Below are positions 1 through 46,011 of a DNA stretch of 64,000 bases, piece after piece (within the stretch, counting starts at the first letter, position 1; each line of letters opens with the position of its first letter). The stretch comes from Centroscyllium fabricii (Eukaryota), in contig JBNRSN020000005.1 in assembly GCA_051313645.2 (NCBI GenBank), positions 304,916,001 to 304,980,000 on the forward strand, read 5' to 3'. Position numbers and translations under genes: made by a program. The notes under the pieces are model-generated. The model was not told where the DNA came from and did no database searches. It saw only the letters and a list, made by a program, of their open reading frames with translations.

Positions 1-525
1 TTTTCTTCATACTTAATAGCCTTCACTTCATTAAAAGTGTATTAATCTGACTGTTGGTCCCCAGGGGGAACCCATAAGATGTTATTTTTTTTTTGTCTCT
101 TATTTTTTTTTTAGATTGCAAAAAAAAAAAGTCTAGCAGATTTGGACCCTGTCAGTCAGAAATAATTGTGTTCTTAATCTTGTCCCTGATGGATGGCTCG
201 GAGTTCAGCATCAGGCCAGCTCCAATGACAAATACAGTATTAATATTCATTAACTGCTTTGACAATGCTAATTTTGATGCAGTAGTAAAGGGCCTTCCAA
301 AGTTAGCGGCCAAAGCATCAGAGCTGTAGAAGGTGGCAAGATAATTTGTGCTGGTTTGCTGAGCTGCGGCTTTCAAAGTAAACCAAAGCTAGGTAAAAAG
401 TTCTGAAGTATTGTGAGGCAAGGCTGCGGAAGTAATACGATCACAGTCCGCCAAAAAATTTGACATCTCCGATGAAGCTTGTTTGACTGAAATTTCAACC
501 AAGTTGTAACAAAAAAAAGCATAAC

Positions 526-528
526 ATG
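526..528 (+). CDS. TCF7L2: Candidate alternative first exon end A (ATG only; gives MSNKVP...)
   Basis: aacATG|gtaagt: A at -3, perfect donor, phase 0 matches exon 6; the exon 5' end is not determinable. Confidence 0.55.
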
Positions 529-1339
529 GTAAGTCAGCGCATTTTTTTGATTTTGTTTAATCTTTTGATCTTTTCAATTATCACCATTTGAAGATCAATA
601 GTCATTTTTTTCCCTAGTATCCTTTAAAGGCGCTCAGCGGTGTCATTCTGCGTGTGTTAGTAACGCAGGCTTCAAAAGTGGGCAGTGAAGCTTTATGGAG
701 CCGCTTGCCACATTCGACTGTGGCAAATATTAGAGTGCAGATATACAACTTGCTAAGTTGCCTTTTATTTATTATTTTTTTACCTGGAATCGATGTATCA
801 AAATTATTGCATAGTTTGGTATTTCCCCGACGAGTGTGTTTAACTGAGCTGGTTATGTGGGCAAAATAAACGGTAGGTTAGCCATTATACCTCGGGTGAG
901 GGGTGAAAAATTATTTTTTTTGTCTGTGGGTTCAAAATACCAGCCGATTTTAACATTATAGGAGACTGCAACTGGTTTTAATGTTTTCAAGTAAGCAAGC
1001 GACTGTTGTTCTTTTGTTCCTTTCTGAACTGTTAAGAGTGGTTTGGGGCTGCTTCTGATCAAATGAGCGCTGCCATCTCATTATCTCTTTCCCATGAAGC
1101 AAGGTAATTCACTGAATAGACCTGAACTTGAGCATCTTTTCCTGAAGAGCTGGAGTTGGATGCAATCGCTTCGTGTCCCTATCTCAGCAGCATCTCGGCT
1201 GTAAGTGGCTCAGGTAGGGTGCTGCCCTCCAGTGGATCTGCCCACATCATGAAGGACTGGCTGGTTTGTGCTGTAGCACAGGAACGGCAGCATGCTTGAA
1301 TTCAGGCAGTGTGAAGCATCGTAATTTGAGCAGGTGTAA

Positions 1340-1342
1340 ATG
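1340..1342 (+). CDS. TCF7L2: Candidate alternative first exon end B (ATG only)
   Basis: taaATG|gtaagt, phase 0; other donors lie nearby (1201 gtaagt, 1214 gtaggg). Confidence 0.4.
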
Positions 1343-2464
1343 GTAAGTTAGAAAATTTTAAGAAGGGCTGAATGTTATAATGAATGCTTTTGAAAAGCTT
1401 TATTTCAGATAGACAAATATGATGACTTGACGCATTGTGTTTTAGAATGTGTTTCATTTTAATTGCAATTTAAAAAAACTTTTTTTAAACTATTGAGTAA
1501 AGGAAGTATTCAGATTTTTTTTCACTTGATGTAATGGCTGAAGTTGATCTGACTTGGCAAGTTTGATTTGCATTCTCTCTTTCCCACAGTTTTTTTTTTT
1601 TTGCCTTTCCTTCCACATCTCCCCCCGCCCTCCTCCCTCCCCCCTCCCCTCAGTAGATGCAAGGTAAATATGTGAGCTGAAAGGGTCTGGTATTTTAAGT
1701 GTTCACCTTTCGTCGTCTGTGGCGAGCTTTCCTCCCGCTCCTTTTTCTTCTCACATCCTCCATGCCCAAAGAAATCTGTGTTGAAGTTGCCCATCCTTTC
1801 TGCCTACACTTAGCGCTCATTGTGCTAAATGATTAGTAACTGTCCATCATCAGCAACCAAACTCCCAGTTTACTTAAGAAATTGCACGTGTGACAAAGGG
1901 AGCTGCTGGAGTGTGGTGACCACCGTGAATAGAGGGAGGGAATGTAATTAGCTGCCTCGTTGTTGGGCTTTTTACATGTCAAACTGTAGCCTCATTGCCT
2001 TTGTTAGTGCCTGTATTGCACCATATAAAGGGAATTCAAAGGTTTTGTTTTGGTATTAAGGCCTTAAAGATTTCTGGCCGACACTTTGCACGCGAAGGCC
2101 AGATTAGTGCAGGGCACTAAATAAAGAGGGGAAAACGGCACACTGTTTTGTTTCCCCTGTTCTCGTGTCTTGTCACTTTTTCTTGCGCAGTACGGATAGA
2201 TGAGAGGAAGAAGTGTGTTACGTGTTCTGCAGACTCTACTAAAGGAGTTTAAAACTGCATGCGTGTAAAGTTTGTTTTTAAAAAGTTGTCTTTTTTTTGC
2301 CCGGGGGGGTGGGGTGGGGGTGGGGGGGGGCGGGGTGGTGGTGTCGTGGGCTGTATGCCACCTGTACTTAGGAGGGGGGTGAGGGTTAATGGGAACATTT
2401 CATTACTTTTGCTTCTATTGTGAAAAGCATTTACTGGAACATATGAGCTGCCCCCAATTTGGAG

Positions 2465-2581
2465 ATGGAGAGGGTTTTGTTTGGGGATGCAATTAGCGAC
2501 GGGAAGCAGTATGCAAAGAGCAACTCCGAAAGAGAATCCTTGCAATACAAAAGCTGCACTTGTACATTGTGTGTAGCCGAG
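2465..2581 (+). CDS. TCF7L2: Candidate alternative first exon C (MERVLFGDAISDGKQYAKSNSERESLQYKSCTCTLCVAE)
   Basis: gagATGg Kozak context, 39 open codons, gag|gtcagt donor, phase 0. Confidence 0.45.
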
Positions 2582-3362
2582 GTCAGTCAGTAGAAGCTGC
2601 AGTGAGGTCTAGTGCTTTGCCTTCCCCGCCACCCCCCCCCCCCCCCCCCCCCTATTTTCTATTATAATAAAAAAAACTGCTGGGACTGATGGCAAGACCT
2701 CACAGGTGTCTTTTTATATATTTATATGTATGTGAGTGTGTGTATGTATGATATATATATAATAATGTCACTGTGTCAAAAAAATAAGAGCTTTCTCGCA
2801 GCTCTACCCCCAGAAGTTCAGCGTGAGGGATTTGACATTCCCACAGATGTGACTGCACGCTACAGTTTGTTGCTCATGCTCCCTTAACCAACGCTTTTCT
2901 CTTCACTGCTGCACTTATTGATACCTTTCCATATAGAGTTGCAGCATTGTCATTTTGGTAATCCTAGGAGAGTTGTCGGCTTTGAAAAGAAAATAAATAG
3001 TATGCATGGGGTTATACCCGTGTGTGCGGTCTTACTCATTGCTAAGTGAGCATTTTGGTGCAGTGATCTATGTTATCGTTTTGAGTGTGCCCTAAATTTT
3101 GGTGCCTGCTGTACGGCAGATATAGGACTGCACTGGGACTAAGATGCTACTAACGGCAAACTTGAATGAGGATGTTGGTTCTAAAAACACCAGGCCACAG
3201 AACTGGAAAGCTCTTGATCTTTTGAGACATCTTTTTTTAGTACTTTAAAAAAAAAAAAGACGCTAGAAAAACCAGGAAGAAACAAAGCGCAGTCGGCACC
3301 GAGGCAAGAGAGAAAGGGGGGGAAAGTTGTAGAGGTTAAGAGACAACAGAAGACAAAGCGGC

Positions 3363-3485
3363 ATGTACCCGAGGGATGCAATTTTGCTGGGAATGGAAGA
3401 AGGGAACAATAAAGGAGGAACGCTAGCCTCTGGGCTCTCCTTTCTCCATCAGTTTGGTTGCTGGCACCTCAATCTAAACAGCTGG
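3363..3485 (+). CDS. TCF7L2: Candidate alternative first exon D (MYPRDAILLGMEEGNNKGGTLASGLSFLHQFGCWHLNLNSW)
   Basis: 41 open codons, then tgg|gtaagt donor in phase 0. Confidence 0.55.
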
Positions 3486-6400
3486 GTAAGTTACTGTACG
3501 CTACAGTGCACGTTTGTATTTTATTTCACACGATGGGCTTCAGATAAGGCCAGTTACTGTGGTTAAGAGGTGGTCAGCTCAGGCAGCGACCTTCTATCCA
3601 ACACTTGAAACTGTGACCTTTGTGTCGCTGCTTTCATAAGAATCTGTTCTGTGAAGAAGAAACAAAAAAAGGAAAATCCAATTGCAGGCAGCTCGACATT
3701 GGGTTTTCTTTAGAAAAGTTGCTTTAACCAGCTCGATACTGATTTTATTTTTTTCTGTATTGCTGCCTAGTACGGGATATTCTACGCTCGTAGATTGCAG
3801 GGCAGAATTTACATTTTAGAACGGCAGATATTAATCCTGACATTCCACTGCCATGCTTCCATTTAGTTAAATTGTGCTTTTAGAATTTAAGTGGGATGTG
3901 CTCTGGTACTGTGAAGAGTTGCTTATGTAGCTCAAATATCAAAGCTGTTTTGAATGCAACAGTGTGCAAATCATGTACAAAACCGAATGTAAAACTGTGC
4001 TTTTTTTCTTTTAATATCTATGCTTGTCATTTGGTTGGGGGGGGGGGGTGTTAGAAAAAAAGTTGCATTTTTTCTTAATTAACTCTATTTTCACAGTCAT
4101 CAGTTAGAGTGTGAAAAACAAAATATTTTAATTTATCTTTATAAATAAAAGCGCCTTACATTTTAAATGTGAATGAAATACTGCTGACACAAGGTAGTAT
4201 AATTTCTCCCTGCTCTGTATTCTTTCCCTTTAAAACTTATACAATGTCCGTTAATACTTCCAAGATTGCACATAATTTGATGTACTGAAGGTTTACTCAT
4301 TTGAAATGTATATTAATTAAAAAAAAAAAAAAAATTATTAGAAGCCTGACGCTCTTCAGATATAATAGGTATGTATTTGTTAAATCCTAGACAGCAAGTT
4401 GGTGTTCCCGAATGTACTTCATTTAGATTTTTGTGAGGGAGCGGAAGATTTTTATTTAATTTAAAAAAGGAATACACAGAGCCTTTCTGAACAGTCTTTT
4501 TGAGTTTACAGGAAAACCTCACTTTTGAGGTTTTGGCATCTCTTCGTGCTCCGTGGGGTAGTGTAACAAAAACCTTCCATTCAATGATATTTTAGAACGT
4601 ACCCAAATGGCGATTTGGGTCTGATATTACGCATTCTCGTTGGATTTAAAACCAAAGCTGATGTTTAAAAAAAAAAATATATATATATCTAAGTTGAGGT
4701 TTTTATTTGTATATATATTCCACTGCTGTGGGGCTGTCTTTTTCCTGCTATGAACAAAATTAGTGCCAGATGTTCTGAACATACCACCAGAACAAATAAA
4801 ATGAGCATTTTAAGGCTGAAATGTTATTATTTTTTGATAAATGCTCCCTGTGATTTCCCCCCCCCCATATAATTAACCTACAGAACGTTTTTATGTTACG
4901 GTTGTATTTCACTTAAATACATATTTGGTATGGACTGGCATCGGAACAACAACTACGCAAACATGTTAAGTGTGCGACGGGACATTTTACAGCAAATCTT
5001 GAGCATTCCTGTGTGAATTGTTAAAGCATTAATTATAATGTATGTTCGCTTCTCACAGAACTTGTTGGCGTTGAAGTAATCGTGTCCCAGAGTTTTAAGT
5101 TGCATATTTCCATTGTAGAGAAAATCGCTATTTTTGAGGTGGTATGAACGAACTTGCATCATTATAGATGTGAACTAATTTTTTTAAGCGTGTTAAATAC
5201 AGTACATACCATTCCAAAACTTTAATCTACTTTGTAGAATATTTTTTCCCCTGCAACATTCTGAAGCGCCCACTCCCTTTTGCTTTTAAACACATATGTT
5301 GCAGTTCGAGCATCATTTTTACTCTTTTTAAACCCCAGACAATGAAACTATTTGTTAATTGAGAGGGAACATTTACTTGATGGCTGATTTTTAATCCTAA
5401 TCTACTCTAATGGCAAGACTGATGGTGGTTTGTATGAACATTTTGGCCTGCTGTTGCAAAGCTGTAACTGTTCCATGACTGAATCAAGAGAGATAAACAG
5501 AAGTACCTGTACTGTAGTAGGTAAATGCGTTTAAGCAAGTGCTTTGGACCCCTTTGCAATGGGAGTTGGTCGGGCTTCACTTTGATTGTGTTGAGTAAAT
5601 GCTCTTCTAACGAACACAGTGAACTAGTTCTACATTCTCTTCACATCCTGTAAACCGGCTGTTAAAGATCAATTAATGACTTTAGTTTTTGACACTTCCA
5701 ATACGCACTTGATTGCCACTCAGATTTTTGTATTTGTTTAGCAGTACTGTAGTTGGATAATGGAAACATTTTGCTCTCCGTGCGGGTGTTCCTATTAAGA
5801 GGCCTCCACTATATTTGTTGCTTAATCACTCAATATGGTAATTTCACTGATTGAAGCTACATTAATGTTACTAAGCGCTCCAGGCAAAATGATAGCCACA
5901 AAGGTACTGTCGTCATTTTCCATATGTTTTGAAGGCCGTGAAAATACAAAAGTTAACCTTTATTGAGTATGGTTAAAATGGTCCCACTGTCCCTTTTTCC
6001 CCCCGGTTACTCACTTTTTTTTACTCGCACATGAATGCTTTCCGGTTTACACTGAAATAAATACTTGGATTTGAGCCTTGGTTCTGCTATTTATCAGGTC
6101 ACATGTTTGGCAGATGCCTTGTACTGCTGGAATTTGTCAACCTGAAACACCAATCGATCATTGCCTGTCAGTTAACTTTCCTTGTACTGCTTGTCCAGTC
6201 TGGCACACACGTCCTACACCGAGTTCAGTCATTGTACTGTGGACTCTGTGAAACTCTTTTATATGTTAGACTGAACTGCTGTAAGTGCAAATTGATTTTT
6301 TTTGCTGAAAAGGGCGGCGCTCAAGGCTCCTCAATAAGCATATGTGCATTGTAAGAAATGGGAACTGCTTTGTAAAACATGACCTTTCTGCCCTCAGGCT

Positions 6401-17130: not shown

Positions 17131-17263
17131 TCTAACAAAGTACCCGTTGTGCAACACCCCCACCATGTCCACCCGCTAACGCCACTGATAACGTACAGCA
17201 ATGAACACTTCACACCAGGTAACCCTCCACCACACTTACCAGCAGATGTGGACCCCAAAACAG
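17131..17263 (+). CDS. TCF7L2: TCF7L2 exon 6 ([45 protein letters not shown])
   Basis: Polypyrimidine tract plus cag acceptor ending 17130, 133 nt, donor gtaggt; the peptide matches the TCF7L2 context-dependent domain; starts in phase 0. Confidence 0.97.
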
Positions 17264-28785: not shown

Positions 28786-28888
28786 GAATTCCTAGGCCTC
28801 CACATCCTTCAGATATTTCTCCCTATTACCCACTCTCGCCAGGTACCGTCGGCCAAATCCCCCATCCACTAGGATGGTTAGTACCACA
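28786..28888 (+). CDS. TCF7L2: TCF7L2 exon 7 ([31 protein letters not shown][LVPQ]) with alternative donor after 28876
   Basis: tctag acceptor; donors gttagt (28877) and gtaagc (28889) are 12 nt apart, the known LVPQ alternative. Confidence 0.96.
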
Positions 28889-29501
28889 GTAAGCAGATCC
28901 ATTTCTTTTTCTTTTTATTCTTTTAATTCTTGTAGAATTTTGCATGTTACTGTATTGTCCAATTATTGTAATGAGCTGTGATTGGCTACTGGGTACCCAC
29001 ATATTCATATGGGGCTTCTCCCTTGCCAACACCTGTCAACACTGGTTACTATGACAAAAGGCTACAAATTAAGGACTGTTAATTTAATGTTTTCTTACTG
29101 AGTTCTAAATACCAAAAGAGGCCCAAAGCAGAACGGCGGCTCTTTGATTTGATGTATTTTATTTTGGTATAAATTTACATTCATTATTGTTTTCCTTTGG
29201 ATCTGTAGCCCTCAATTATTGTGATGGCTCCATTAAAGCAAACGCCGCTTCGCCTTTAATTATCACAACAAAACACCTAGTTTTAGCTTGGGGAGAAGGT
29301 CTCTGTTGACATTAGCAGAGGTTATAAAATTTAATTAGCTGGTTCTATCAGATTTAGCACATTAAAATTGTTCTTTATTTACATCCTTTGATCCTGGCTG
29401 TGCAATCAACAACATTTTTTGTTCTGGTCAAATGAGAGTGAGCTCGCAACAGCAGGAGACGTTTTCAGTTATTTTTTTCTTCTTTCTTTTCTTCTTTTCA
29501 G

Positions 29502-29588
29502 GCAAGGTCAACCTGTTTACCCAATCACAACAGGGGGATTTCGACATCCTTACCCCACTGCACTCACCGTCAATGCTTCCATGTCAAG
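29502..29588 (+). CDS. TCF7L2: TCF7L2 exon 8 (QGQPVYPITTGGFRHPYPTALTVNASMS)
   Basis: Long pyrimidine tract plus cag, 87 nt, donor gtgggt; peptide match. Confidence 0.96.
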
Positions 29589-30397
29589 GTGGGTACACTT
29601 GCCTTGTTGGCAATCAATATTTTATTTTAAGCAGATAATCTTCAAGCATTTTCTCAACAGCTCTTTTGTTTTAACCATTTTGCCATTGTCTGTGTTCAAT
29701 GAGGACACATTGCCGTTTCTGAATGTTGTGCCCTTTTTTTTCGCAATGGAAGAATTGGCATGTGACATTTGTATTGTCTTTGTAATAAACAAACAAATAA
29801 ACTAAATGCCATTCCATAACTAAATACTGCACTTTATGAATAAACCAGCAAATAATGCATCATAAATTTGGAATGGAGGTCTAGCTGCAGTATTATTGTG
29901 TAAGGAGATAATTTATATCGTACACAAATATTGACTGCTTTTCAAGGCTATAGTGATAAAATATTGCTCCTAAGGGAATATAGAAGTGTCAAGAGCATGC
30001 TGCAATTATTGCACACTTTATATCGATGTTGGAGCCCGAGGGACAACATTTTAGCACTTGCAGACAGAAAAGTGCAGTTAATATTTATTATACCCTGTGG
30101 CTAGAGTCACTTATCGCTACTTGAGCCACACTAAGCCAGTTCAGAGAGCAATAATCTTCGTTGTTACATCACAGGTTAAAGGCCACTTTAACATGGAATT
30201 GCTCAAAAAGTAGTAATAGGCTGTCTGCTCTTCCACTTGGAGGCCTGCAGCTCTTTCTAGTGAGTCAGTTGGTAGCAACATAAAGCACTTAAAATTGTGC
30301 ATCCATGTAATAGAGTCCCATATTTAAAAGTAGGAGACAACTCGGTGATAATGGTGAGTTACAGCAGTTATCAGAGTGCCACAGAGCAACACATCAC

Positions 30398-30605
30398 AGA
30401 AACTAGGAGCAGGAGTCGGCCATTCGGCCCTTCGAGCCTGCTCTGCCATTTTGATGAGATCATGGCCGGTCATCCAAACCCAGCACCCCCCTCCTACCCT
30501 CTCCCCATATCCCCCGACACCCCGAACTCTAAGAACTATATCTCACACACATACTCATGGACAATTTTGTTTTAGTATCTCCAATTCACCTAACCTGCAT
30601 GTCAT
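30398..30605 (-). mobile_element. Degenerate HE1 SINE 3' part
   Basis: aggagcaggagtcggccattcggcccttcgagcctg tail. Confidence 0.7.
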
Positions 30606-33600
30606 TGGGCCTACTGGTCAAAAAAGCCCCACCCACGGCCTTTGGACATTTAAAGAAAAAACTACGATTCACTCTTTTACTCAATGGACACTTGTATCTC
30701 CCGGTGGAAACTTTTTTCTTTTGTATCCAGGCTGCTCTTTGGCTGACACATTGCTAGATTCAATTTAAGTGCCGCAGGAGTTAATCAATTGGCCCCACAA
30801 CTTGTTGTTTCTTCCCACTCCTTCATGCAATCTGGGCAGCGTGACCACCGGTTGTCCTTTAGGGGATGCAGGAGTCTGAAATGCTGCCATGGATAGGGTT
30901 TAAACTTAAGTTTTCGTAGCTTGAGCGTGATTTCTGCTGGAATTAAATCTGTCTTCTCCTTTTGACCCTCATTGACTGCATTTTGCCCATATATATTTTC
31001 AGCTTTTACACTTGAGGCACTAACTCTAGGAAAGATAAATTATTGATTCTCTAATACAATAAAAGTAGAAAATAAATACTGTAAGAATTAAAACAGTTCT
31101 TAAAGTACAACTTTCTTTGATTTTTTTTTTGCCGCCTTTCGCTGTAGTTTCTGGGATATTCAGGTTTTGAGTAAGTTATAGTGCAGGGGACAGGAACTAA
31201 ACTGAAAAGAGGGAAAATGGGAATCTTTGGTGATTGCAATGTTTTGAGTCGCACAAAAGTTCACGCTTGCAAGAGTCAAATCCGACTATTCTGTCGTGGC
31301 AGTAAAAAGAAAACTCCAAATAAATGTGGAAATGAAAATGGAATGTGCTATATATGAGTCTAGTTCAGCTGCTGATCGACCTCCTGTTCATTTCCTGTAC
31401 TTGAGTTTCATGGTGACACAGTTTTAAGACACAGAGGTGAATGCTCCTGTTCCTGGGAAGGTGCACCCTTGATTTATCCCTGGAGTTGGTGAATTCAGTG
31501 CAGATTAGCTGTAAATTTACTTGTAGCTTTGGAGTGTCAGTTTTCACAATGACCCGACCACCTCATCATACTAGTGTGAATCTGTTCTTAATAACTCAAC
31601 ATTACTTTAGGGTGCTTGCGTAGTATTACTAACTAATACCCTTTGAGTGCTATGGATGTGCCTTCAATGGCAAGAATTCAGTCACAGGCACTTCAGTAGT
31701 ATATATGAAGGGAGTACCTGTGCTTCCTGAGACATAGAACTCCACCTTAAAGGTGGTATCACTTCCAGCATCCTGAGGCGAAGTAGTTTTCACATTGATG
31801 GCCCGTTCAACCATCCCTCAATATTATTGAGGATGTGCGGCCAGAGGCATAATTCTTCAATTGCAACTTTTGAACTGCACAAATGCAGTTTTGAATGTGT
31901 GCAGTTGGTTTACCGTTGCTCTGAAATTAAGTTGTCACATGAATTCAGAGCTGTCTGCAACCTAATCACAGTGTGAAACCACTTCTATTGGAAACAGTTC
32001 CATAATGTAAATGAACTGTTAGAAACTAGTATATGGGCTTGACTAAGGCTGTACCAACATATTCTTTCAATGATTGACTTGGCAATTAACTTGTATTGTA
32101 GTGAATTAGATTAGGATAGAAACTAAATTAGGGTCAGAACTCTTCATTTGGCCATCCTTTATGTGTTGTGTATTACTGCATGCTGAGCCACAGATTGGTA
32201 GCTTTCCGGTTCTGACCCTAGGCAGTGTGTTCCCATACACCTGGAGCCATCTGAGAAGGCAGCAAGTGGAGGTGATAAAAAAGAAACAAAGCCGAATTAA
32301 ATAAACAGCACGTTCCTAAATGTGTATTGCCATCACGATACACAAACATCAGCTTATTCCAGTCACATTATTCATCCAATCTGTGTGTCAGTTGGCCAGC
32401 TCATCAACTAAAGGTCAAAGCACACATCTGTATTTTGTTGTAACAAAGCCAGCAGTCTTCTGTAAAATGTGTATGGAATGCAACACCAACTAGCTCACTG
32501 ACAAGTACTCTATTATTTAAATTTCTTTGGGGGAAAAACTAAATTATATATTATTTTTCCATTCCTTTCACAAATTAGATGCTCCCTATGTTGTGAACAT
32601 CGTTTAATAGAGAGGGCCAGCAGGGGAAAAAGTCCAAGGCCTATGTCCGCACCACTCTCGATTCAGCTGCTAAGCAATCATGTGGCTGCATTTTGACCAT
32701 ATGCTAAGCCTCCATCAACAACTTGTATTTATATAACGCCTTTAACATAGTAAAACATCCCAAGATGCTTCACAAGAGTAGTATTAGACAAAACCTTTGA
32801 CACCATATCAGGATAAATTACGGCAGGTGACCAAAAGCTTGGTCAAAGAGGTAGGTTTTAAGGAGCGTCTTAAAGGAGGAAAGAGTGGCGGAGAGGTTTA
32901 GGCAGGGAATTCCAGAGCTTAGGGCCTTGGCAACAGAAGGCACAGCTATCAATGGTTGAATGATTACAATCAGGGATAGAAGATAAGAGCAGGAGTAGGC
33001 CATTCAGCCCCTCGAGCCTGCTTCGCCATTTAATGAGATCATGGCTGATCATCCAAATTCAGTACCCTGTCCCTGCCTTCTCCCCATATCCCTTGACCCC
33101 TTCAGCCTTAAGGAATATATTCAAATCCTTCTTGAATATATTTAATGAACTGACCTCCACCGCCCTCTGTGGCAGAGAATTCCACAGGTTCACCACTCCT
33201 CCTCATCTCAGTCCTAAATGGCTTACCCCTTATCCTTAGCCTATGACCTCTGGTTCTGGACTCCCCGGCCATCGGGAACATCCTTTCTACATCTAGTCTG
33301 TCCAGGCCTGACAGAATTTTATAGGTTTCGATGAGATCCCCTCTCAATCTTCGAAACTCCAGCGAGTATAAGCCCAAGCAACACAATCTCTCCTCATACG
33401 TCATTCCTGCCATCCCAGGCATCAGCCTGGTGAATCTTCGCTGCACTCCTTCCATGGCAAGAACATCCTTCCTCAGATAAGGCGACTAAAATTGCACACA
33501 ATACTCGAGGTGTGGTCTCACCAAGGCCCTGTACAGCTGCAGCAAGACATCCTTGTTCCTGTACTCTAACCCTCTTGCTACGAAGGCCAACATACCATTT

Positions 33601-33769
33601 GCCTTCTTAACCGCCTGCTGCACCTGCATGCTTACCTTCAGTGACTGGTGCACAAGAACACCCAGGTCTTTTTGCACTTCCCCATCTCCCAATCTATTGC
33701 CATTCAAATAATAATCTGCCTTCCAATTTTGCCACCAAAGTGGATAACCTCACATTTATGCACATTATA

Positions 33770-34518
33770 CAGGTTGAGCACCGTTAACCCGGCAAGGGCG
33801 GGACCAAGCCCGTGCCGGGGAAGTGAAAATCCCGAACGATTGAAGCTTCAGCAAGCGCATGCGCAGATCATTCTAAATGGCCGCCGCGAAAGGCTGGCGG
33901 CCATTCTGAGTGGTCTGCGCATGTGTTTATCGTTCGGGGAATCCCGGCGCCCAGGCCGAGTTCGGAGAGTCCCGGCAGTCCCGGCCCAGCCCGCGTTCGG
34001 AGAGTCCCGGCCCAGCCCGCGTTCAGAGAGTCCCAGCCCAGCCCGCGTTCAGAGAGTCCCGGCCCAGCCCGCGTTCAGAGAGTCCCGGCCCAGCCCGCGT
34101 TCAGAGAGTCCCGGCCCAGCCCGCGTTCAGAGAGTCCCGGCCCAGCCCGCGTTCGGGGAGTCCCGGCCCAGCCCGCGTTCGGGGAGTCCCGGCCCAGCCC
34201 GCGTTCAGGGAGTCCCGGCCCAGCCCGCGTTCAGGGAGTCCCGGCCCAGCCCGCGTTCAAGGAGTCCCGGCCCAGCCCGCGTTCGGGGAGACCCGGCCCA
34301 GCATCGTTCGGGGAGACCCGGCCCGGCCCGCTATCGGCTTGAAGAGACCATTGTGAATGATCTGCGCATGCGCTCACCGTTCGGCGCATGTGCAGATCAT
34401 TCGCCGACGCATCAATCACGGCGGCCATTTTGCGCATGCGCGGGGCAGTCGTGGAAATTATTGCCGGACGTTCGAAGTTGCCGGTATTTCGGGTAACGGA
34501 TTAACGGTGCTCAACCTG
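33770..34518. mobile_element. Tigger-like MITE with 26-bp minisatellite, inserted in CR1
   Basis: TA TSD; TIR caggttgagcaccgttaa. Confidence 0.9.
33977..34330. repeat. 26-bp tandem repeat (agtcccggcccagcccgcgttcagag), about 13 copies
   Basis: Directly visible periodicity. Confidence 0.95.
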
Positions 34519-34811
34519 TAGTGCATTTGCCATGTTTCTGCCCAATCACCCAACCTGTCCAAATCATACTGGAGTTTCACGACATCCTCCTCACAACATA
34601 CCCTCCCACCCAGCTTTGTGTCGTCTGCAAATTTGGAGATATTACATCCAATTCCCTTGTCCAGATCATTAATATATATTGTGAACAGCTGGGGTCCAAG
34701 GACCGATCCCTGCGGTACCCCACTCGTCACTGCCTGCCACTCAGAAAACGACCCGTTTATTCCAACTCTTTGCTTTCTGTCTGCCAACCAGTTCTCTATC
34801 CAAGTCAATAC

Positions 34812-35040
34812 TGATGTGACAAAAGCGACTTACACATCAAATACTTTAAGCAAAGCTTTAATCAGCTATTTACAGAGTTGAGAGTTTTAACATATTTACA
34901 TAGAGAAGCATTATCTCAGACTGAATAGTAGCAGAATTTATACTACTACACAGGAAGTGACATGTACAGGAAGTGATGTCACTGGAAGTTCATAAGCAGA
35001 GTTCATCCGACTTCCTGCCGGAAGTCTCAATATCATTACA
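34812..35040 (-). mobile_element. Solo LTR, 229 bp
   Basis: TG...CA ends, 5-bp TSD aatac, interrupts the CR1 cleanly; TATA-like and ATTAAA motifs on the minus strand. Confidence 0.8.
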
Positions 35041-35906
35041 AATACCTTGCCCCAATCCCATGAGCCTTAATTTTGCACGCTAATCTCTTATGCGGGACCT
35101 TATCGAAAGCCTTCTGAAAGTCCAAATACACCACATCCACTGGTTCTCCTTTATCTATGTTACCAGCTACATCCTCAAAAAATTCCAGTAGATTAGTCGA
35201 GCATGATTTACCTTTTGTAAATCCATGTTGACTTTGTCTGATCCTGTCACTGTTTTCCAAGTGCTCTGCTATTACATCTTTAATAATGGACTCTACCGAT
35301 GTCAGGCTATAATTCCCCACTTTTTTCTACCACCTTCTACCACCTTTTTTGAATAGTGTGGTAACATTAGCTACCCGCCAATCCATGGGTACTGTTCCAG
35401 AGTCCCTTCTGGAAGATGACCAGCAATGTATCTACTATCTCCAGGATGTTCAAGAACACAGAATTAGAGGAGCGCAGATATCTCGGTGGTGGTGGGTGGG
35501 GGGTTGGATTATGGGGCTGGAGGCGATTACAGGGATAGAGAGGGGTGAGGCCATGGAGGGATTTGAAAACAAGGATGAGAATTTTGAAATCGAGGCATTG
35601 CTTAACCAGGAGCCAATGTAGGTCAGTGAGCACAGGAGTGATGGGTGAACGTGACTTGCTGTGAGTTAGGACACAGGCAGCAGAGTTTTGGATCACCTCA
35701 AGTTTACATAGGGTAGAATGTGGGAGACCAGCCAGGAGTGCATTGGAATAGCCAAGTCTAGAGGTAACAAAGGCATGGATGAGGGTTTCAGCAGCGGATG
35801 AGCTGAGACAAGGGTGGAGACGGGCAATGCTACGGAGGTGGAAGTAGGCGGCTTAGTTATGCCACCCCCTACTAGCAAACACAAACCAGTTTTGAATGCG
35901 ATTTAC

Positions 35907-36625
35907 AAAACATAGAACATAGAACATACAGCACTGTACAGGCCCTTGGGCCGTCAATGTAGTGCCGCGCTTAGTCCGTCTCTGATTTTTCCTGTCCCCC
36001 CTACTCTTCCTTCCCCTCCATGTACCTATCTATCATCCTTTTAAAAGCACCCAGACTGTCCACATCCACTATTTCAGATGGTAGCCTATTCCATTCCCCG
36101 ACCACTCTCTGTGTAAAGAACTTGCCCTTGCCATCCCTTCTGAATCTTCCTCCTTGAATCTTGTGCTCGTGCCCTCTTGTTGTCGTTCTTCCCACCCGGG
36201 GAAACAGTCTCTGCACGTTTACTCTATCGATCCCCTTCATCATTTTAAACATCTCTATTAAGTCCCCCCTCTTCCTTCTCCGTTCCAGGGAGAAGAGTCC
36301 CAGCTCCCTCAACCTCTCCTCGTACGACTTTCCCCCCATTCCCGGCAGCATCCTGGTGAATCTCCTCTGCACCCTCTCCAACGCCTCCACATCCCTCCTG
36401 TAGTACGGTGCCCAGAACTGCACACAGTACTCCAAGTGTGGTCTCACCAGTGACCTGTACAGCTGTAGCATGACCTCCCGGTTCTTAAACTCTATTCCCC
36501 TGTTGATGAAGGCCAATACACCATAGGCCTTTTTTACTGCCTTGTCCACCTGGGTGGCAGCCTTCAATGATCTGTGTACATATACTCCCAGATCCCTTTG
36601 CTCCTCTGCTTCGCTATTCAAATTG
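35907..36625 (-). mobile_element. CR1 LINE 3' fragment, distinct subfamily, ORF2 C-terminus open
   Basis: ORF 36001-36639 RDLGV...RPHLEYCVQFW...FFTQRVV; (catagaa)n tail. Confidence 0.9.
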
Positions 36626-39600
36626 GTGACTATGTACACAGGATCTCTCCAAAAATTATTTTCGAACTGGTACCAATTTTGTCATGGGCCATTATAACCT
36701 ACGTTTGGACTTGCACTGAATCCATTCTTGTTGCAGTCATTTCATCCAGCCCTTTTGCCCCTCATTTACTCCTGCTCTTCAGATCTTAAAGAGAACAAAA
36801 AAAAATTCTGGGTTTACATTGTTAAGCAGTGCAACTGAGAGCATCCATTCCTATGTGGAAGCCCTACTTAGTCCTGCAGCATGGAGCCCAAATAGCAACA
36901 CCAAATTATGCCTGTGGGCTTCAGTCTAATTGTGGTATTGGTAAACTGCATTGTAGCAGTAATGAGGCCCTCTTAATGGAAAAATGCAATAATTTTCACA
37001 AGATTTAATTGTGCCAGCCATGTAAAATTTAAATGGGTATTTAGCAATACTGAAGGTGGAATAAAAAAGTAATGAGGTATTGTAAATCTGTACCTAATTT
37101 TAACTAGCAGAAGTAGCTGCAATGCAGGATAAAATATCAATGTATTAAAGTTTACAACACATCAGCGTTACCACAGCAGATTCCACCCCTGTGTACAATA
37201 TTCATGTCCATATGCATACACAACAAATGCAAACATACAAAACTAATAAGAGAGACTGGTAAATGATGACACATCAAAGCTCTTGAAGGCTGATGTTCAG
37301 AACTCTGAAAGCTACTGTTTTGATAGGGGTTCTGACTGTTCGTCACAGCCCCAATTAATACAGTACGAGCTAATTTCCCAGTGGCTACAAGTATATTTAC
37401 AAACTACTCCATAGCACTGTATTTAAGCAATCGCTAATTGCTCCTAATGATGGGTTTATTTTCTGTTCATCTGATTTAGAGTTCAGCTAATTTAATTGGT
37501 GGAGGGTTAGACTTTCCTGATGGGCTGAAACAGCTAATGCATTTTGATGATAGCTGTTAATTAAATTAGCATAGATTATTAGGCAAGGCTCCCCATCTCT
37601 GGGGACTAAGTGGATGCATTTGTAAAAGCACAGCTTTAGATAGGGGCAAGACAAATTAACCATTTAAAATTTAATTTTTTTTCCAGAGGTTTAGCAGAAT
37701 AGCAAAAATGTTTATCACTGAGTAGCAAAAATGTTTATCACTGAATGGCAAAATAAGACTTTAGGAATGTATTAGAAGTGTTCACGATGTTCAGTGTCGC
37801 AATTGTACAGCTGTCAGTGGGGCACCAGTGGGTTATGAGAGTGAAAGGTGCACATCACAAAAGAGAGAAAGGGTGTCGGGTTATTTTCTGGTCACACATG
37901 GACTGCTTTTGGTAGTGTCCCCCATCCCCTCAAATAGACTGTGGGGAGGGGTCAGGTTGTCAGGCAAAGCACACGATTTGTGCACTTGTGATGGCAATCA
38001 TTAAAACAACTTAGCAGTTCTTCAACAGTTTTCTTCCTGTAGGGGCATACATTAGTTATTCAGATGAAAAAAAAGAGAACAAAAGGCATTTGTGTGGTAG
38101 TGGGGTGATGGAAATACACATCTGTATTATTCCTATGACATCTATAGGAAATGTAGACTCCATGCCCTGCCAGAGCGCACCTTTTGATATTTATTCCATC
38201 CAGCAGTAGGGCAGTGATTTCTTGGAATTAAGTGATGGGTCATTATACTTTAAACACAGCAGAGAGGCATAGACTGGCAATTAAACAGCAATAGCTGACA
38301 CTCACTTGTGCCACCTTGTGACCCTGTTAGATTGAGATGTTAGAGCTTCGGGGCCCCTCAGCCTAGCAAATTGGCTGAAGGTGCTTCTCCTGACTAGGGC
38401 CCGCTCTGAAATGTGCCGCCTTCAAAGAGACCAGCATCATGTATAAACCATAATGTGGGTTTGTGGTGGTTCAGAAAGCTCAGGAAAATTGAGCTTGGAA
38501 AAGATGAGAGATAACAACTGCACAGGGAGAGGAGGGGGGGGGGGGGCGAATAATGACAAACTAGCTGCAACTCAAAGAGGCTGGGTTTTTTTTTGCAAGG
38601 GGGGGGGGGTGAAAAAGCATCCCACAGCTCACACATAAAACAAAGCCAGGCAGATGACATGCAGTTAACAGAAACATGTCAACAGTGAAATAAAGTGAGA
38701 GTGAACGTGATAGAAGCCCCAGAGACACTGTGGAACAAAAATGAGTTTGTTCGTAACATGGCCTGCAAGTTTATGCACATCATTATATTCTGGCTTGCAG
38801 CCATAAAAGCAGTCAGGATTTTTTCATAATTAGCTGTTTAGAATTTTCAGTTTTTACAACGGAATATATATATATATTTATTATACATATATTTCTATAA
38901 ATAAAATGTCGTTTCCTTGTTCAGTTGCAAGAGCTATACCAAATTTCAAATATTTTGTAGATAGTGTGGAAGTAATCACCTTATGATAGATTGACATTTT
39001 ATAGTATCCATTAACTCCTGAACCCTTGTAAGTCTCTTCAGGTAATGAAATGAATGTAACCACTTCATCACGTGAAGAATGATGCTCTTGAGGTTTTGAA
39101 AGCTCTAGTGTACTATAAAATACTTCACCTGTGTGCTGTCTTATGTTTGTATGGTATTTGTAAATGGTATTTTCACTGCTCAATCATTTCACTCTAGGCA
39201 ACAAAGTCTGCATCTGTCAGTCTCCCACATGCTGTGTAATTGGACAAAAATGTTCACTCCAAAATCATTTTACTATATTTTAAAATAAAGCAGTAGATAT
39301 ATCATTATTATATTGATAAGAAATGATTATGTTGGTTTGATTTATGATGTTGGGGAAGATTTTTGGTGTACCACAAAGTCAGCCCTTCTCAATAATGCTA
39401 GAAATTGAGATTTGACTGAATATAATTTTGGACAGGTGAACATGCATTTGTTGGCTGTATGCAAAAATTGTCAAAGGGGCCAAACCAAAACTGTTCTTTG
39501 AAAAGGCCTCTTAGACAGAGTTCTATAAGGGAAAATCTTTGAATTTATGTAGCATATATTGTATTTATACAATGTATATGTTGTAATGTTTTGTTACTAT

Positions 39601-39774
39601 ATACTGTTGGCAGTCCAGTAAAGTTAGACTGACAGTTATGTAATGATGAGTCATTTTATGCTATTAATCACAGTAGCCACGTAGAGTGATTGTGACAGCT
39701 TGTATGCTTGTTTATATATCAAATGTGTGCCCATCCCTCCCGTTCATTCATTTCTGTTCTGTTGATTCACACAG

Positions 39775-39915
39775 TTTTCTCTCTGGTAGGTTCCCCCCAC
39801 ACATGGTTCCACCACACCACAGTTTACACACAACGGGAATTCCCCATCCGGCCATAGTCACACCAACTGTCAAACAAGAGTCTTCCCAGAGTGACATCGG
39901 ATCCCTTAATAACTC
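39775..39915 (+). CDS. TCF7L2: TCF7L2 exon 9 ([SFLSG][43 protein letters not shown]) with alternative acceptors at 39775 and 39790
   Basis: acag ending 39774 and tag ending 39789 are 15 nt apart; donor gtaagt at 39916. Confidence 0.96.
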
Positions 39916-40206
39916 GTAAGTCTTAATATTTGTGCAGAAAGCACATCAGTTTATTTTAATGTGCAACTAGTTCATAACTTTGAAATTTGTAGTCCTGTTT
40001 GCCATGATAAAAATTATTTCAAAGTTTTAAAAGCATGCGTGTCTCTTTTGTCTAGATTATTAAATGCTGACTTTTCCCAGTTTATTGTAACTTTTATGAT
40101 TTTCATTTGGTTTTAATGCTGAATCATTTAAAATGTAGCCTTTTTGGAAGAGGAATGATCACTTGAGTTTCACTGGTGAAGTCAGTAACTGTTCTCATTC
40201 TCTCAG

Positions 40207-40369
40207 AAAACATCATCAGGATGCCAAAAAAGAAGAGGAAAAGAAAAAGCCGCACATAAAGAAACCTCTGAACGCGTTCATGTTGTACATGAAGGAAATG
40301 AGAGCAAAGGTAGTAGCGGAGTGCACGCTGAAAGAAAGTGCGGCCATCAATCAGATCCTTGGCCGAAGG
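40207..40369 (+). CDS. TCF7L2: TCF7L2 exon 10, HMG box N-half ([54 protein letters not shown])
   Basis: tctcag acceptor, gtaagc donor, canonical TCF/LEF HMG sequence. Confidence 0.98.
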
Positions 40370-40669
40370 GTAAGCAGTCTAAGCCATTGAAAATCACCAC
40401 TTCCTAACCTAAAGCACACAAGACCAGGTTGGAGATAATAATCTTAGTGATCAGGGCAATCAGTCAGTGGAGATTTTTACGCTGGCCGTCAACTATTTTC
40501 CATTCAGCAAATCAGGATCAACACTCTTTAGAGATTGGAAGCAAGTGTTGCCGATAATAGCGAACGACACAACATGTGCCATTAATCTGCTATTTTAACA
40601 ATGAATGGTTTAACACCTCCATTAAAATACCATGGAGAGGCATGTCATACAGACACCGTAAACACCTGT

Positions 40670-41197
40670 CCATAGAATCATAGAAACATAGAAGATAGGA
40701 GCAGGAGTAGGCCATTCAGCCCTTCGAGCCTGCTCCGCCATTCAATGAGATCATGGCTGATCTTTAGCAAGCTAGTACCCCGTCCCCGCCTTTTCTCCAT
40801 AACCTTTAATCCCTTTAGCTTGAAGAAATATATCCAATTCCCTCTTGAATATGTTTAATGAACTGGCCTCCACCGCCCTCTGTGGCAGGGAATTCCACAG
40901 GTCCACCACTCTCTGAGTGAAGAAATTCTTCCTCATGTCTGTCCTAAATGGTTTACCCCTTATCCTTAGACTGTGGCCCCTGGTTCTGGACTCCCCCGCC
41001 ATTGGAAACATTCTCTCTGAATCTAACCTGTCCAGACCTTTCAGAATTTTATACGTCTCAATGAGATCGCCTCTCAATCTTCTAAACTCCAACGAGTACA
41101 AGCCCAGACTACACAATCTCTCCTCGTAGGTCATTCCTGCCATTCCAGGAATCAGCCTGGTGAAACGCCGCTGCACTCCTTCCATGGCAAGAACATC
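40670..41197 (-). mobile_element. CR1/HER1 3' fragment in intron 10
   Basis: ORF 40772-41185 plus tail. Confidence 0.92.
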
Positions 41198-41624
41198 CAG
41201 TTTTATTGCCCTCTATACTAGCCGTAACTTTTCAATTTAAGAACTCTATCTCAACTGAATTGATTAAAAGTGATGCGCCATAATTCTGAAATGCTTTAGA
41301 ATATAAGTGGTTTTTTTCTTGATTTTTGAAGCTGTGTTCTTATTTTAGTTGAGTCATTCCCCTTGCCCTCCCTCAAACACTTAACAGTGTAAAGGTGATG
41401 ATTCTCCTGTCTGTTTCACAATAAATCCTAGTCTGGCTTTTTTGTTACAGTAAATGAATGTGTACAGATACAGCATAGTGTTAATGTTGATGCTTTTCAT
41501 TCTATTGTGGTATACAGCCCTGATATTTTATTAATGCATTAATCTCTTCAGGCATTTTTATACACAAGTATGGATTGAATTAATGTGTTCTATTTCTCCC
41601 TCATCCGACCCTGTTTGTTCTTAG

Positions 41625-41732
41625 TGGCACGCTTTGACTAGAGAAGAACAAGCAAAGTACTATGAGTTAGCCAGAAAGGAACGGCAGCTTCACATGCAAC
41701 TCTACCCGGGCTGGTCAGCACGAGATAACTAT
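41625..41732 (+). CDS. TCF7L2: TCF7L2 exon 11, HMG box C-half ([36 protein letters not shown])
   Basis: ttag acceptor, 108 nt, gtaagt donor. Confidence 0.98.
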
Positions 41733-41821
41733 GTAAGTTCCATTCTCGAGCACTTTCCCCGCTCCCTTCCCCATTACCCTGTTTTTTTTTCTCCCCTCTA
41801 CAGGCCCAGTGGCGTACACTT

Positions 41822-43382
41822 CATACGATTTGGACAGGTCGGGTGATTGGGCAGAAACATGGCAAATGCAGTATAATGTGGATAAATGCGAGGTTATCCA
41901 CTTTGGTGGCGAAAACAGGAGGGCAGGTTATTATCTGAATGGCAATAGATTGGGAGAAGGGGAAGTGCAAAGAGACCTGGGTGTCCTTGTGCACCAGTCG
42001 CTGAAGGTAAGCATGCAGGTGCAGTAGGCGGTTAAGAAGGCAAATGGTATGTTGGCCTTCGTAGCGAGAGGGTTCGAGTACAGGAACAAGGATGTCTTGC
42101 TGCAGTTGCACAGGGCCTTGGTGAGACCACATCTTGAGTATTGTGTGCAGTTTTGGTCGCCTTATCTGAGCAAGGATGTTCTTGTCATGAAAGGAGTTCA
42201 GCGAAGATTCACCAGGCTGATACCTGGGATGGCAGGAATGAAGAATGAGGAGAGATTGTGTCGATTGGGCTTATACTCACTGGAGTTTAGAAGATTGAGA
42301 GGGGATCTCATCGAAACCTACAAAATTCTGTCAGGCCTGGACAGACTACATGCAGGAAGGATGTTCCTGATTGCGGGGGAGTCCAGAACCAGGGATCATA
42401 GTCTAAGGGGTAAGCCATTTAGGACTGAGATGAGGAGGAATTTCATCATCCAGCGAGTGGTGAACCTGTGGAATTCTATGCCACAGAGGGCAGTGGAGGC
42501 CAGTTCATTAAATATATTGGCCCAGAAATTCAGGTTGGAGGCTTCCCGCGAGTGCAAGCCTCCAACCCACACTTACGGACTGCGCCGGCCGTTGAGCAGT
42601 CCACCAGCATGGAATTCCGATGTTGAGCCCTCCTGAACTGCCGGCGCGCTGTTCTCCTGGATCTGAACGGCGAAGATAGTGCGAGGCTTCGCGTGGGATC
42701 ACGTGGGCCATGGAGAGCACAGAATACTACAACCCCAAAACCTCAGTAAATCTTAAAAGAATTTTTTTTTTTTTAAATCACTTTTTAAAATAACTATCAA
42801 TTACATAAATTAGCTATTTTAAACAAACAAAAATAATAATAATTAAAATATTTAATGGGGCTAAAAATCAACTTACCTTTCTTTAAAGTATTTAAAAACG
42901 AAAAACCTGCGGAATTGCTTTTTTAATTGAATGAAAAAAATCACCACTTACCTGCTGAAACCCAGTCTTGGCGCTTGAAAAAAGCTTTTTCTAATACTTA
43001 CCCGGATAAAAAGCTGTAAAAAAAAAAATTAAAAAATTTTTAAATCGCAATTTCATTACGCCCCCGCGCACGCGTTCCGATCCCTGACCTCTTCTTTCAG
43101 GGGATCAGACGTGGCGGTTTCGCGTACATGCCGGAAACCGGCACTTCCGATGGGCCTATGCGTGAGTACCCAGCGCGTACTCCCGCGTTGGGACCCTAAT
43201 TTCTGCCCCATTCAAGAAAGAGTTGGATATATTCCTTAAGGCTAAAAAGATCAAGGGATGTGGGGAGAAGGCAGGGATAGGGTACTGATGTTGGATGAGG
43301 GCAGCCATGATCTCATCGAATGGCGGAGCAGGCTCGAAGGGCCGAATGGCCTGCTCCTGCTCCTATCTTCTATGTTTCTATG
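41822..43382 (+). mobile_element. CR1/HER1 3' fragment in intron 11, split by a MITE
   Basis: ORFs 41809 and 42049; resumes at 43210 and runs to the (ttctatgt) tail. Confidence 0.92.
42519..43209. mobile_element. Harbinger-like MITE inside CR1
   Basis: 3-bp TSD att; TIR ggcccagaaatt / aatttctgcccc. Confidence 0.8.
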
Positions 43383-43645
43383 TCAGTTTAATGTTACAAA
43401 TAATGATTAGGGTGAAGCCAACAGTGCCCAGCCGTCTTCAGGAACGTGTGCGTGCCACAGAGCTGTCCTGCATATTGCTTTTGCTTCTCCGTGCTGATCG
43501 AACAGAGCATTAAAAAAAAAATCTTTTGAGGTGTTTTTGATTCTTATTGGCGTAGTTTTGTGAACCTAATGGGCAAACTGAGCTTGTGCTTTTTTTATCC
43601 CACCACCCTCCTCCCCATCTCCCATTTTTTCTCTCTCCCTAATAG

Positions 43646-43694
43646 GGCAAAAGGAAGAAGAGGAAAAGGGAAAAGCAGGCAGGGGAGACCAATG
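43646..43694 (+). CDS. TCF7L2: TCF7L2 exon 12, basic tail/NLS (GKRKKRKREKQAGETN)
   Basis: aatag acceptor, 49 nt, gtaagt donor. Confidence 0.95.
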
Positions 43695-44499
43695 GTAAGT
43701 AGCCAGCAATTATCTTCCATAATAGAGGGCGCCCTTCACATATCAGAATAACGACATTTAATCAGATGAAACCCTAGCTGCTGCTAACCATGTTTTATAA
43801 CATAGTTAATTACAATACTATGTATGCAGTTTAATTTTATGGCTGGTTTGCCTTTCCAAGAGCGATAAAGTAATCAGTGCATGAATATAGACATTTTTAA
43901 TGCTCGTTTTTATAGAACTCTTTAAAAAAAAAAATAATAATAATAATAATTATTGCATTAGCTATTGTAACTTAAAATGTTTTAAAGCTTATTGTAGTGT
44001 GTACTTATTGTCTTGTATTGACATATTAATTTGGGCTGTACCTGTTTTCTGATGCATCCTTCGTGAAATTAGCCTTACCTGCTAGACTAATCCCATTATC
44101 CTACTTTACATTTGCCCTCAGAAGGCATGCATGTAAAATTGACCCTGCTGTCCAGCTCCTATTGCAAAGCACTTTAACCTTTTAGCCTGATTCAAGCCTA
44201 ACCTTACTCTTGCTGGCACTAACCTGCAGGTTCTTTATTCAGTCCACTTCCTTCCTTTTGCGAATTCTAATTAAAAGCTACTATAAAATAATACAAATTT
44301 GTATTGCCACACAATATATTGGTGCTTCTTTTAAATGGGTGAAAAAAAAATACAGCTGTGATTTTAATACGTTTTTTTATGAAATTAGAGGGCATCGCTG
44401 ATCACTGGTAACAGTTAAATTGATTTATTCCTTTTTGTTTTCTTGTCTCTCCTCCTTCCATTTCTGTCTCCTCTGCTCGCTTTCTTCCAATTTGTTCAG

Positions 44500-44572
44500 A
44501 TCTGAGCGCTCCTAAGAAATGCCGAGCGCGCTTTGGCCTTGATCAACAGAATAACTGGTGCGGCCCGTGCAG
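44500..44572 (+). CDS. TCF7L2: TCF7L2 cassette exon 14, C-clamp CRARF (DLSAPKKCRARFGLDQQNNWCGPCR)
   Basis: ttcag acceptor, 73 nt, gtgtgt donor. Confidence 0.96.
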
Positions 44573-44846
44573 GTGTGTATCGTTTTCCCAGGTTTGCTAT
44601 GGTTGGTTTCAGCTGGGTTTAAATTGGTACTTTCCCCTTCTTGCTATCACTGTTTCAGTGTTTCGATTGGACGCTGATAACCCCACCCTTGCATCCATTG
44701 TTGCTAGGCAGTGTGAAATTTTTGTTTTTTTCAGTGATGAGGGGAGAATGCCAACTTGGCCAGCTAAACCACTAGCTCTGGCTGAGATGTCACATCCAGT
44801 GAGCAGTATCCTCCATTTGTTGTTTTTGTTTACTTCATGCTAACAG

Positions 44847-44919
44847 ATGCAAATACTCCAAAGAAGTGTCGGGCATTGTTCGGGCTAGACCAACAGAGTT
44901 TATGGTGCAAACCTTGCAG
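44847..44919 (+). CDS. TCF7L2: TCF7L2 cassette exon 15, C-clamp CRALF ([25 protein letters not shown])
   Basis: taacag acceptor, 73 nt, gtatac donor; paralogous to the preceding exon. Confidence 0.95.
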
Positions 44920-45274
44920 GTATACTCCCATTAGGCCGTCCGGAATTAAATACGCCCTTTACTGGATTTGTAGTGCATTCGTGTGACTTTCCTGTGCTCT
45001 AATGTGCTAATATTCTATAGCTTAATGCAGATTTTTTTTGTTTTATTTTCCTTTCTTTTTTTTTTACCTGTTGCCTTTTATTAGCAGCATTGGTCTGTCT
45101 CCTTGCAAGCACTGTCCACCTTTTTTCCCCCTTTCCTGGCCCCCCCAAACAGTGGTTGCGATGGGCCTGTGACCTTGTGTCAGAGATTGGTGCAATGAAA
45201 CCTAGGACAGAAGAGAGAGAAGTTTTGTTCTTGAAAACTGGCTAACTACTAACCACCCATGGTCCATAAAGATC

Positions 45275-45335
45275 TATATATGTATATGTGTATATATGTA
45301 CATATATATGTATATATATGTACATATATATATAT
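45275..45335. repeat. Imperfect (TA/TG) microsatellite
   Basis: tatatatgtatatgtg... Confidence 0.9.
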
Positions 45336-45986
45336 TGTGTAGAAAATTCACCTGGTTTCTACTGAATGTGTAGACATCGCAGTTCTAAGTGCACAACATG
45401 TACTGATATTCTTCTGTGCATGAGTCCATTTTAGTCAGTGAATGTGAAATTTCAACATAATAGAGCTACTATTTCATTTATAGAGAATGTTACCTTATTG
45501 ATAAAATAGTCGCCTCTCCTGAGTAATTATCGCAGCATTGTACAACAGATACGTTTCCAAGAAGCAGAAAGGTGTTTGTGCACTCCAGTAACTATGTCTT
45601 TACATTTTTATGTATTAATCGCCAATTTATTTTTAGTAATTGGGCGTCATACCAGCTACAAGCTCGTTCAGAGGAAACTTTCATTTTCAGGCGAGTGCAA
45701 AATCTGTTGGAATATCTTTTTTTTTAAGTAACACACAATTAAATTTCTCTTTTTTAGTTTTCTTACAATTCGGTTTAACTAAACAAACTCAGACATCAAA
45801 CGGTCAAAGGCTTATCCACCACAGCTAATCTGAGTACTCTAGAACCTTTCAAACTACTCGGTTGCCAATTCTCTAATTCTTGGGACTTGGCTGGGTAGAG
45901 GGAATAAATGTTTTGTCCTGTTTATGTACACCTTTCCCGTTGACCGCATTTGGTTAAATCTTATTTCTTTGTCCTGACACATGCAG

Positions 45987-46011
45987 TCTTTGAAGTGGGA
46001 ATGTTGTCATG
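45987..46011 (+). CDS. TCF7L2: TCF7L2 25-nt micro-exon 16 (13b)
   Basis: atgcag|tctttgaagtgggaatgttgtcatg|gtaggt; same length, position and TCTTTGAA...ATG ends as the mammalian micro-exon (from recall); gives ...PCSL* after exon 14 or 15. Confidence 0.85.

Follow-up and report, generated by a model that had tools for sequence, protein, structure and literature searches.

The short forms of TCF7L2 and the question raised by a shark locus

In the mouse, promoters in intron 5 of Tcf7l2 (first exons Ex1b-e) give rise to a 35-40 kDa protein that lacks the first 161 residues (PMC3468386, PMC6147171, PMC3429047, PMC4963812, PMC3825142). The question addressed here is whether a system of this kind is also present in the shark Centroscyllium fabricii, in which a stretch of 64,000 nucleotides (contig JBNRSN020000005.1 of assembly GCA_051313645.2, positions 304,916,001 to 304,980,000; hereafter the window) carries a block with four candidate alternative first exons, A to D, upstream of exon 6 of TCF7L2 (Table 1). 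The identity of the host gene is evident from the HMG exons, the two alternative C-clamp exons and the E-tail that lie downstream of the block; exon 5 is located outside the window. A first-pass annotation had viewed the four candidates as a battery of N-termini for a truncated TCF7L2.

We suggest, with a probability of roughly 0.8, that the block is orthologous to the cluster of internal promoters in intron 5 of TCF7L2; in the shark, exon D would be coding, exons A and B would contribute a methionine only, and exon C would probably be non-coding. Judged from the sequence comparisons described below, exon D is very likely a real and ancient coding first exon. The first exons of the block would be spliced to exon 6 and thereby yield TCF7L2 proteins without the beta-catenin-binding N-terminus; exon D would supply the 41-residue start common to predicted isoforms from skate to mammals, and exons A and B nothing beyond the methionine.

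Table 1. Features of the window, in window coordinates
Feature	Position	Strand	Remark
Shark-bird conserved element	189..332	+	43/48 identities in tblastn with the N-terminus of bird model P0089
Candidate exon A, ATG abutting the GTAAGT donor	526..534	+	would give a short TCF7L2 starting Met-SNKV
Candidate exon B, ATG abutting the GTAAGT donor	1340..1348	+	predicted protein identical to that of A
Second shark-bird conserved element	1841..1939	+	33 codons match at 70% in tblastn with the N-terminus of tinamou model P0060 (E 5e-12)
Candidate exon C, 39-codon open reading frame and GTCAGT donor	2465..2587	+	no support for a coding role
Exon D, coding part: 41-codon open reading frame from ATG to phase-0 donor	3363..3485	+	skate match 38/41; jawed-vertebrate homologues
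Exon D, 5' splice site GTAAGT	3486..3491	+	homologous models change to SNKVPV right after residue 41
TCF7L2 exon 6 (SNKVPV...)	17131..17263	+	acceptor shared by the first exons; its 5' end is in phase 0
TCF7L2 exons 3' of exon 6, among them those of the HMG box, the basic tail, both C-clamps and the E-tail	28786..50568	+	
HMG box	about 40208-41732		
Basic tail	about 43646-43694		
C-clamp exons	about 44500 and 44850		

The peptide encoded by exon D and its homologues

A search with the exon D peptide returned one match among six candidates, the little-skate TCF7L2 isoform X18 (XP_055502842.1), with which it shares the start, the length and the junction to SNKVPV. When the first 90 residues of this skate protein served as the query, 3832 proteins were scored, and the peptide was present in 45 of the best 120; its carriers comprise sturgeon, cypriniforms, salmonids, percomorphs, frogs, squamates, chicken, platypus, a carnivore and rodents, and no human or house-mouse record is among the matches listed. 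The first-pass annotation had called the peptide unique and thereby undervalued exon D, whose product is distributed across the gnathostomes rather than being confined to sharks. Since models on both sides of the split between cartilaginous and bony fishes contain the exon D peptide together with its junction to exon 6, the system likely predates this split, as had been proposed, and models from skate to mammals that join this peptide to exon 6 likewise bear out the assignment of the block to the intron-5 region for truncated TCF7L2.

The clusters to which these proteins belong were then sampled; 21 are listed, most of them picked for carrying the peptide, and the proportions that follow are hence not representative. 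Among the 334 cluster proteins fetched, 326 contain the SNKVPV sequence, and these divide into 89 of the exon D type, 14 that start with Met-SNKV, 137 with the normal exon 5, 42 with known cassette exons and 44 others. The exon D segment is 41 residues long in 82 of its 89 models, 35 in three, 39 in two and 58 in one, and one further model starts at Met11; the six length variants are all in frame. In the 34 distinct peptides, M1, Y2, G24 and W41 are invariant, G10, G32, W34 and L38 occur in all except one, and residues 6-21 vary freely. Only a single model among the 89, a 'hypothetical protein' prediction, combines the normal N-terminus with exon D, which argues that exon D acts as a first exon; an internal cassette was rejected on the same count.

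Isoforms in RefSeq that start with MYPRD share the 41-residue N-terminus and the junction (in addition to the skate protein, XP_015144042.1 of chicken, XP_073773475.1 of zebrafish and XP_031760582.1 of Xenopus); they stem from automatic annotation, are unnamed and have no family model. Searches with the exon D peptide yielded no Pfam family, no PDB sequence match and no usable match in the ESM Atlas, and a metagenome scan with an exon D profile gave 81 pattern matches, none of which was confirmed. The skate D-isoform itself matches PF08347 (CTNNB1_binding) at model positions 138-222 only and retains a full PF00505 match (HMG box), whereas PF08347 is matched over model positions 1-222 by the full-length isoform. 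By analogy with the known short forms, the shark proteins would bind DNA through their HMG box and act as beta-catenin-independent regulators or repressors, and their transcripts would, as in mouse, probably be made in neurons of the diencephalon and midbrain.

A second in-frame methionine codon of exon D lies at position 3393, has a stronger start context than the first, and is represented in 14 of the 34 distinct peptides; one Xenopus model begins at this residue (Met11). Because of this context and the Xenopus start, a 31-residue form arising through leaky scanning is possible.

Probable selection on the frame of exon D

Mapped onto a textbook species tree with 23 leaves that covers all major clades of jawed vertebrates, exon D has undergone at least 119 amino-acid changes without acquiring a single stop codon. 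Without coding constraint, about 5.5% of amino-acid-altering changes should be nonsense, and the complete lack of stops then has a P value near 0.001. The contrast with the conserved element at 189-332 (see below) is instructive: exon D is the more diverged of the two, yet its frame is intact. These comparisons indicate that selection has preserved the start codon, the open frame and the length of exon D, and the reason for this constraint is most likely that the exon must, first of all, deliver a protein. A weaker, sequence-specific role of its C-terminal half, suggested by its position, may come in addition.

Several observations weigh against this interpretation of exon D and of the block. 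The test for stops suffers from a bias, as a lineage in which the frame is interrupted would be missing from protein sets. Among seven bony vertebrates, exon D is identical at 19-30 of 41 positions versus 39-41 of 41 for exon 6, and the substitutions in exon D are conservative to a mild degree only (mean BLOSUM score of -0.2 versus -0.69; 52% versus 46% non-negative). All homologues of exon D are predicted models, neither curated nor shown by proteomics; RefSeq models are usually based on RNA-seq data. The little skate is the one other chondrichthyan in which exon D was found, and a Met-SNKV start was seen in none of the 16 chondrichthyan proteins, with 15 of the 34 members of the skate cluster being listed in both cases. 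TATA, TCF and homeobox motifs and CpG dinucleotides are not enriched in the block, and the minus strand of the 64 kb carries the heptamer GGTAAGT, on which part of the chance argument below relies, six times. A 2025 preprint finds the short and long isoforms redundant in the embryonic thalamus (bioRxiv 10.64898/2025.12.27.696670), and this weakens the label 'dominant negative'.

Exons A, B and C

The positions given by the first-pass annotation were all recovered (a slash marks the splice site): ATG/GTAAGT at 526-528 and at 1340-1342, GAG/GTCAGT after 2465-2581 and TGG/GTAAGT after 3363-3485, each in phase 0 and reading in frame into the SNKVPV exon at 17131. Such spliceability in frame is of little weight by itself, since an in-frame ATG is present at 13 of the 35 loose donor matches within 1-17120. 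The number of donor-like sites in the block does not exceed chance (13 versus 9.3). The chance expectation was assessed with 1000 dinucleotide shuffles of positions 1-3600, a region picked after the sites had been seen. None of these shuffles reached the two copies of ATGGTAAGT found there, and three GGTAAGT heptamers were attained with P=0.004; of the three exons concerned, D alone has direct homology support. Over the whole window ATGGTAAGT occurs three times (0.49 expected; one in 100 shuffles reaches three), and its third copy is a genuine donor of TCF7L2. On the plus strand of the 64 kb there are four GGTAAGT heptamers, namely those of A, B and D and the genuine TCF7L2 donor at 43694.

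Models with a Met-SNKV start are annotated in chicken, quail, a sparrow, marmot, bear, zebrafish, several other teleosts and a frog, and an exon ending in ATG therefore exists in bony vertebrates; protein records cannot reveal which exon provides the methionine. From these sequence data we regard exon A as quite probably real, and exon B, whose start context is weak (T at -3), as rather probable as well, with less assurance. As A and B give the same protein, the proposed battery of four N-termini shrinks, and the block probably yields two N-termini rather than four. That there should be several first exons is unsurprising, given that the mouse already has at least ten (PMC10208975). Further donor-like sites without an in-frame ATG are present at 1103 (AAG/GTAATT), 1213 (CAG/GTAGGG) and 1663 (AAG/GTAAAT), and these sites may mark first exons without coding sequence, comparable to a part of those in the mouse.

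Of the two peptides singled out for homology searches, that of exon D thus found relatives from skate to mammals, while that of exon C, which contains the CTCTLC sequence, did not: two candidates were returned, none at E<=1. No similarity was detected to the 334 fetched cluster members. In the representative library, the only matches of exon C were two unrelated repeat proteins. All these searches are weak for isoforms hidden in clusters. The ATG of exon C is favourably placed, with G at both -3 and +4, and its donor matches at 7 of 9 positions; at least one ATG-initiated open reading frame of 39 or more codons that ends at a 7/9 donor was obtained in 19% of the shuffles. Four out-of-frame ATGs are present within the 250 nucleotides upstream. 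We therefore do not retain the CTCTLC peptide as an N-terminus of TCF7L2, and consider it improbable that exon C is a real coding exon. A TATA-like sequence at 2024 is situated about 440 nucleotides upstream of its ATG.

Alternative interpretations of the block

Could the exon D peptide be a functional module in its own right, either an amphipathic helix that tunes the recruitment of Groucho/TLE or an N-terminus that sets the half-life of the protein, so that two functionally distinct short TCF7L2 forms exist? The near-constant length and the invariant residues described above speak for this idea, as does a hydrophobic moment with its maximum, or close to it, at residues 21-31 (0.30-0.41 in five peptides). 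The C-terminal half of exon D would, moreover, occupy the slot directly before SNKVPV in which a 20-residue cassette of zebrafish tcf7l2 increases both co-immunoprecipitation with Tle3b and repression (PMC6908431). Exon D exhibits, however, no significant similarity to this cassette (P values of 0.09-0.86), the database searches gave neither a Pfam nor a PDB match, there is free variation at residues 6-21, and both conserved ends overlap with the context of the start codon and of the splice donor. We consider such a module possible, and somewhat doubtful. If it were real, the choice of the first exon in the brain would decide whether the repressor carries the module or not, and a 'dnTCF7L2' construct obtained by merely truncating the protein would represent just one of the two short forms.

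One may also suppose that all four exons are real and that exon C adds a cysteine-containing N-terminus specific to chondrichthyans; its strong start context and 7/9 donor, the large number of mouse first exons, and the prospect that a lineage-restricted isoform might hide within protein clusters are compatible with this view. The failure of the exon C peptide to find a relative either in the searches or among the fetched proteins, the ease with which shuffled sequences produce such pairs of reading frame and donor, and the out-of-frame ATGs ahead of it make this unlikely. It appears still less likely that the entire block is conserved regulatory DNA, with exon D transcribed, its reading frame a by-product of annotation, and translation initiated mostly elsewhere. 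Gene predictors do translate conserved non-coding elements of this very block, and the homologues of exon D are without exception predictions; yet its ATG and open frame were kept through all the amino-acid changes recorded on the tree, and every one of the six length variants is in frame. An internal promoter cluster with a coding exon D accordingly remains the reading that we prefer.

Relationship to known short TCF7L2 systems

Several first exons in an intron-5 system of the mouse, on which the first-pass annotation had relied, are well documented: in addition to Ex1b-e, Nanopore reads disclosed at least ten neuronal first exons, which account for about half of the Tcf7l2 transcripts of the brain, and a deletion of about 6 kb abolishes the short protein and impairs vocalization, for which the short form is required in pups (PMC10208975). 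In grouping alternative first exons that each have a donor, this 'exon 5 prime' cluster resembles the candidate exons of the shark block. It consists of at least ten exons, of which exons 2-9 lie within about 6 kb, is neuron-specific and is the source of the short protein; the excerpt of that paper gives no coding content per exon, and the shark block contains three strong donors in 3.5 kb. The protein known as dnTcf7l2 or S-TCF7L2 (Vacik, Stubbs and Lemke 2011, known to us via reviews) is treated in these reviews for mouse and Xenopus, not for sharks, and as a truncation alone; their excerpts do not mention an added N-terminal peptide, whereas the shark exon D would add one. In the shark, exon D is in frame with exon 6, and the corresponding junction is found in skate and bony-vertebrate models. 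An intronic promoter that generates a TCF protein without the beta-catenin-binding domain is likewise the basis of dnLEF1 and dnTCF7 (PMC4963812), which are encoded by paralogous genes and use other introns. Cassette exon 5 of zebrafish tcf7l2 shares with exon D the position N-terminal to SNKVPV, and differs from it in being internal, part of the full-length protein and 20 residues long. Sequence comparison led us to reject the idea that exon D is homologous to the cassette exons of fish or mammals, or to the domain that binds beta-catenin.

The intron-5 system itself has been described before, and automatic annotation already includes the D isoform; the gain from the present work is for these reasons moderate. 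What is added is the likely origin before the gnathostome split and the length-conserved N-terminal peptide. The full-text literature searched holds no discussion of the exon D peptide or of a shark version, and Vacik 2011 and the supplementary figures of Qi 2023, which were outside this search, may show it; the term MYPRD does not occur in the 20 of 55 papers listed, and the excerpts of PMC6772062 and PMC7473649 contain nothing on either subject. Short TCF7L2 has so far been treated as a plain truncation, and its role is disputed, being seen as either dominant negative or redundant (bioRxiv 10.64898/2025.12.27.696670). A coding first exon whose length has stayed at 41 codons between sharks and mammals would place the origin of the system in the ancestor of the gnathostomes, and exon D offers a small and inexpensive test of a functional difference between the short isoforms.

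Conserved elements and other features of the window

The element at 189-332 is translated in two bird gene predictions, and in the shark its frame is interrupted by a stop at codon 47 of 48; a fifth coding exon at this site was rejected because of this stop. As its translation is so nearly identical between shark and bird and is nevertheless interrupted in the shark, the pattern is that of non-coding DNA, and we consider the segment probably a very conserved non-coding element. Vacik and colleagues are said to have described, in 2011, a promoter element of deep conservation to which Vax2 binds, and the segment at 189-332 is a candidate for this known element. The second element, at 1841-1939, is probably non-coding as well. 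A motif scan led us to reject both an enrichment of CCAAT and a CpG island in the block.

The description of the block as free of transposable elements holds in so far as 0% of positions 1-7000 is similar to the rest of the window, with up to 36% per kb in 7001-17000; self-similarity alone is only a partial test of that description. Between the block and exon 6 lies an inverted pair (13430-13780 and 15062-15416) of about 350 nucleotides and 88% identity, which probably represents two copies of a mobile element.

Exon 6 itself is preceded by the acceptor ...ttggcag, has its donor after 17263, and is identical at 45 of 45 residues to the TCF7L2 of shark, ray and skate. The second C-clamp exon reads QQSLW, as in all three shark proteins that contain this exon, and QQNLW is found in four of four batoid proteins with it; the window's version is thus in keeping with a shark. 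An exon that codes for SNWASYQL... (about 45635-45694) is positioned 3' of both C-clamp exons and recurs in those proteins of shark, ray and skate that were examined; motifs of the bony-vertebrate 'exon 13' had no match within the 64-kb window. Several lizard and frog models (P0187, P0189, P0190, P0273) open with a few residues right before exon 5 (YLQMKW...), hinting at a further internal start upstream, outside the window.

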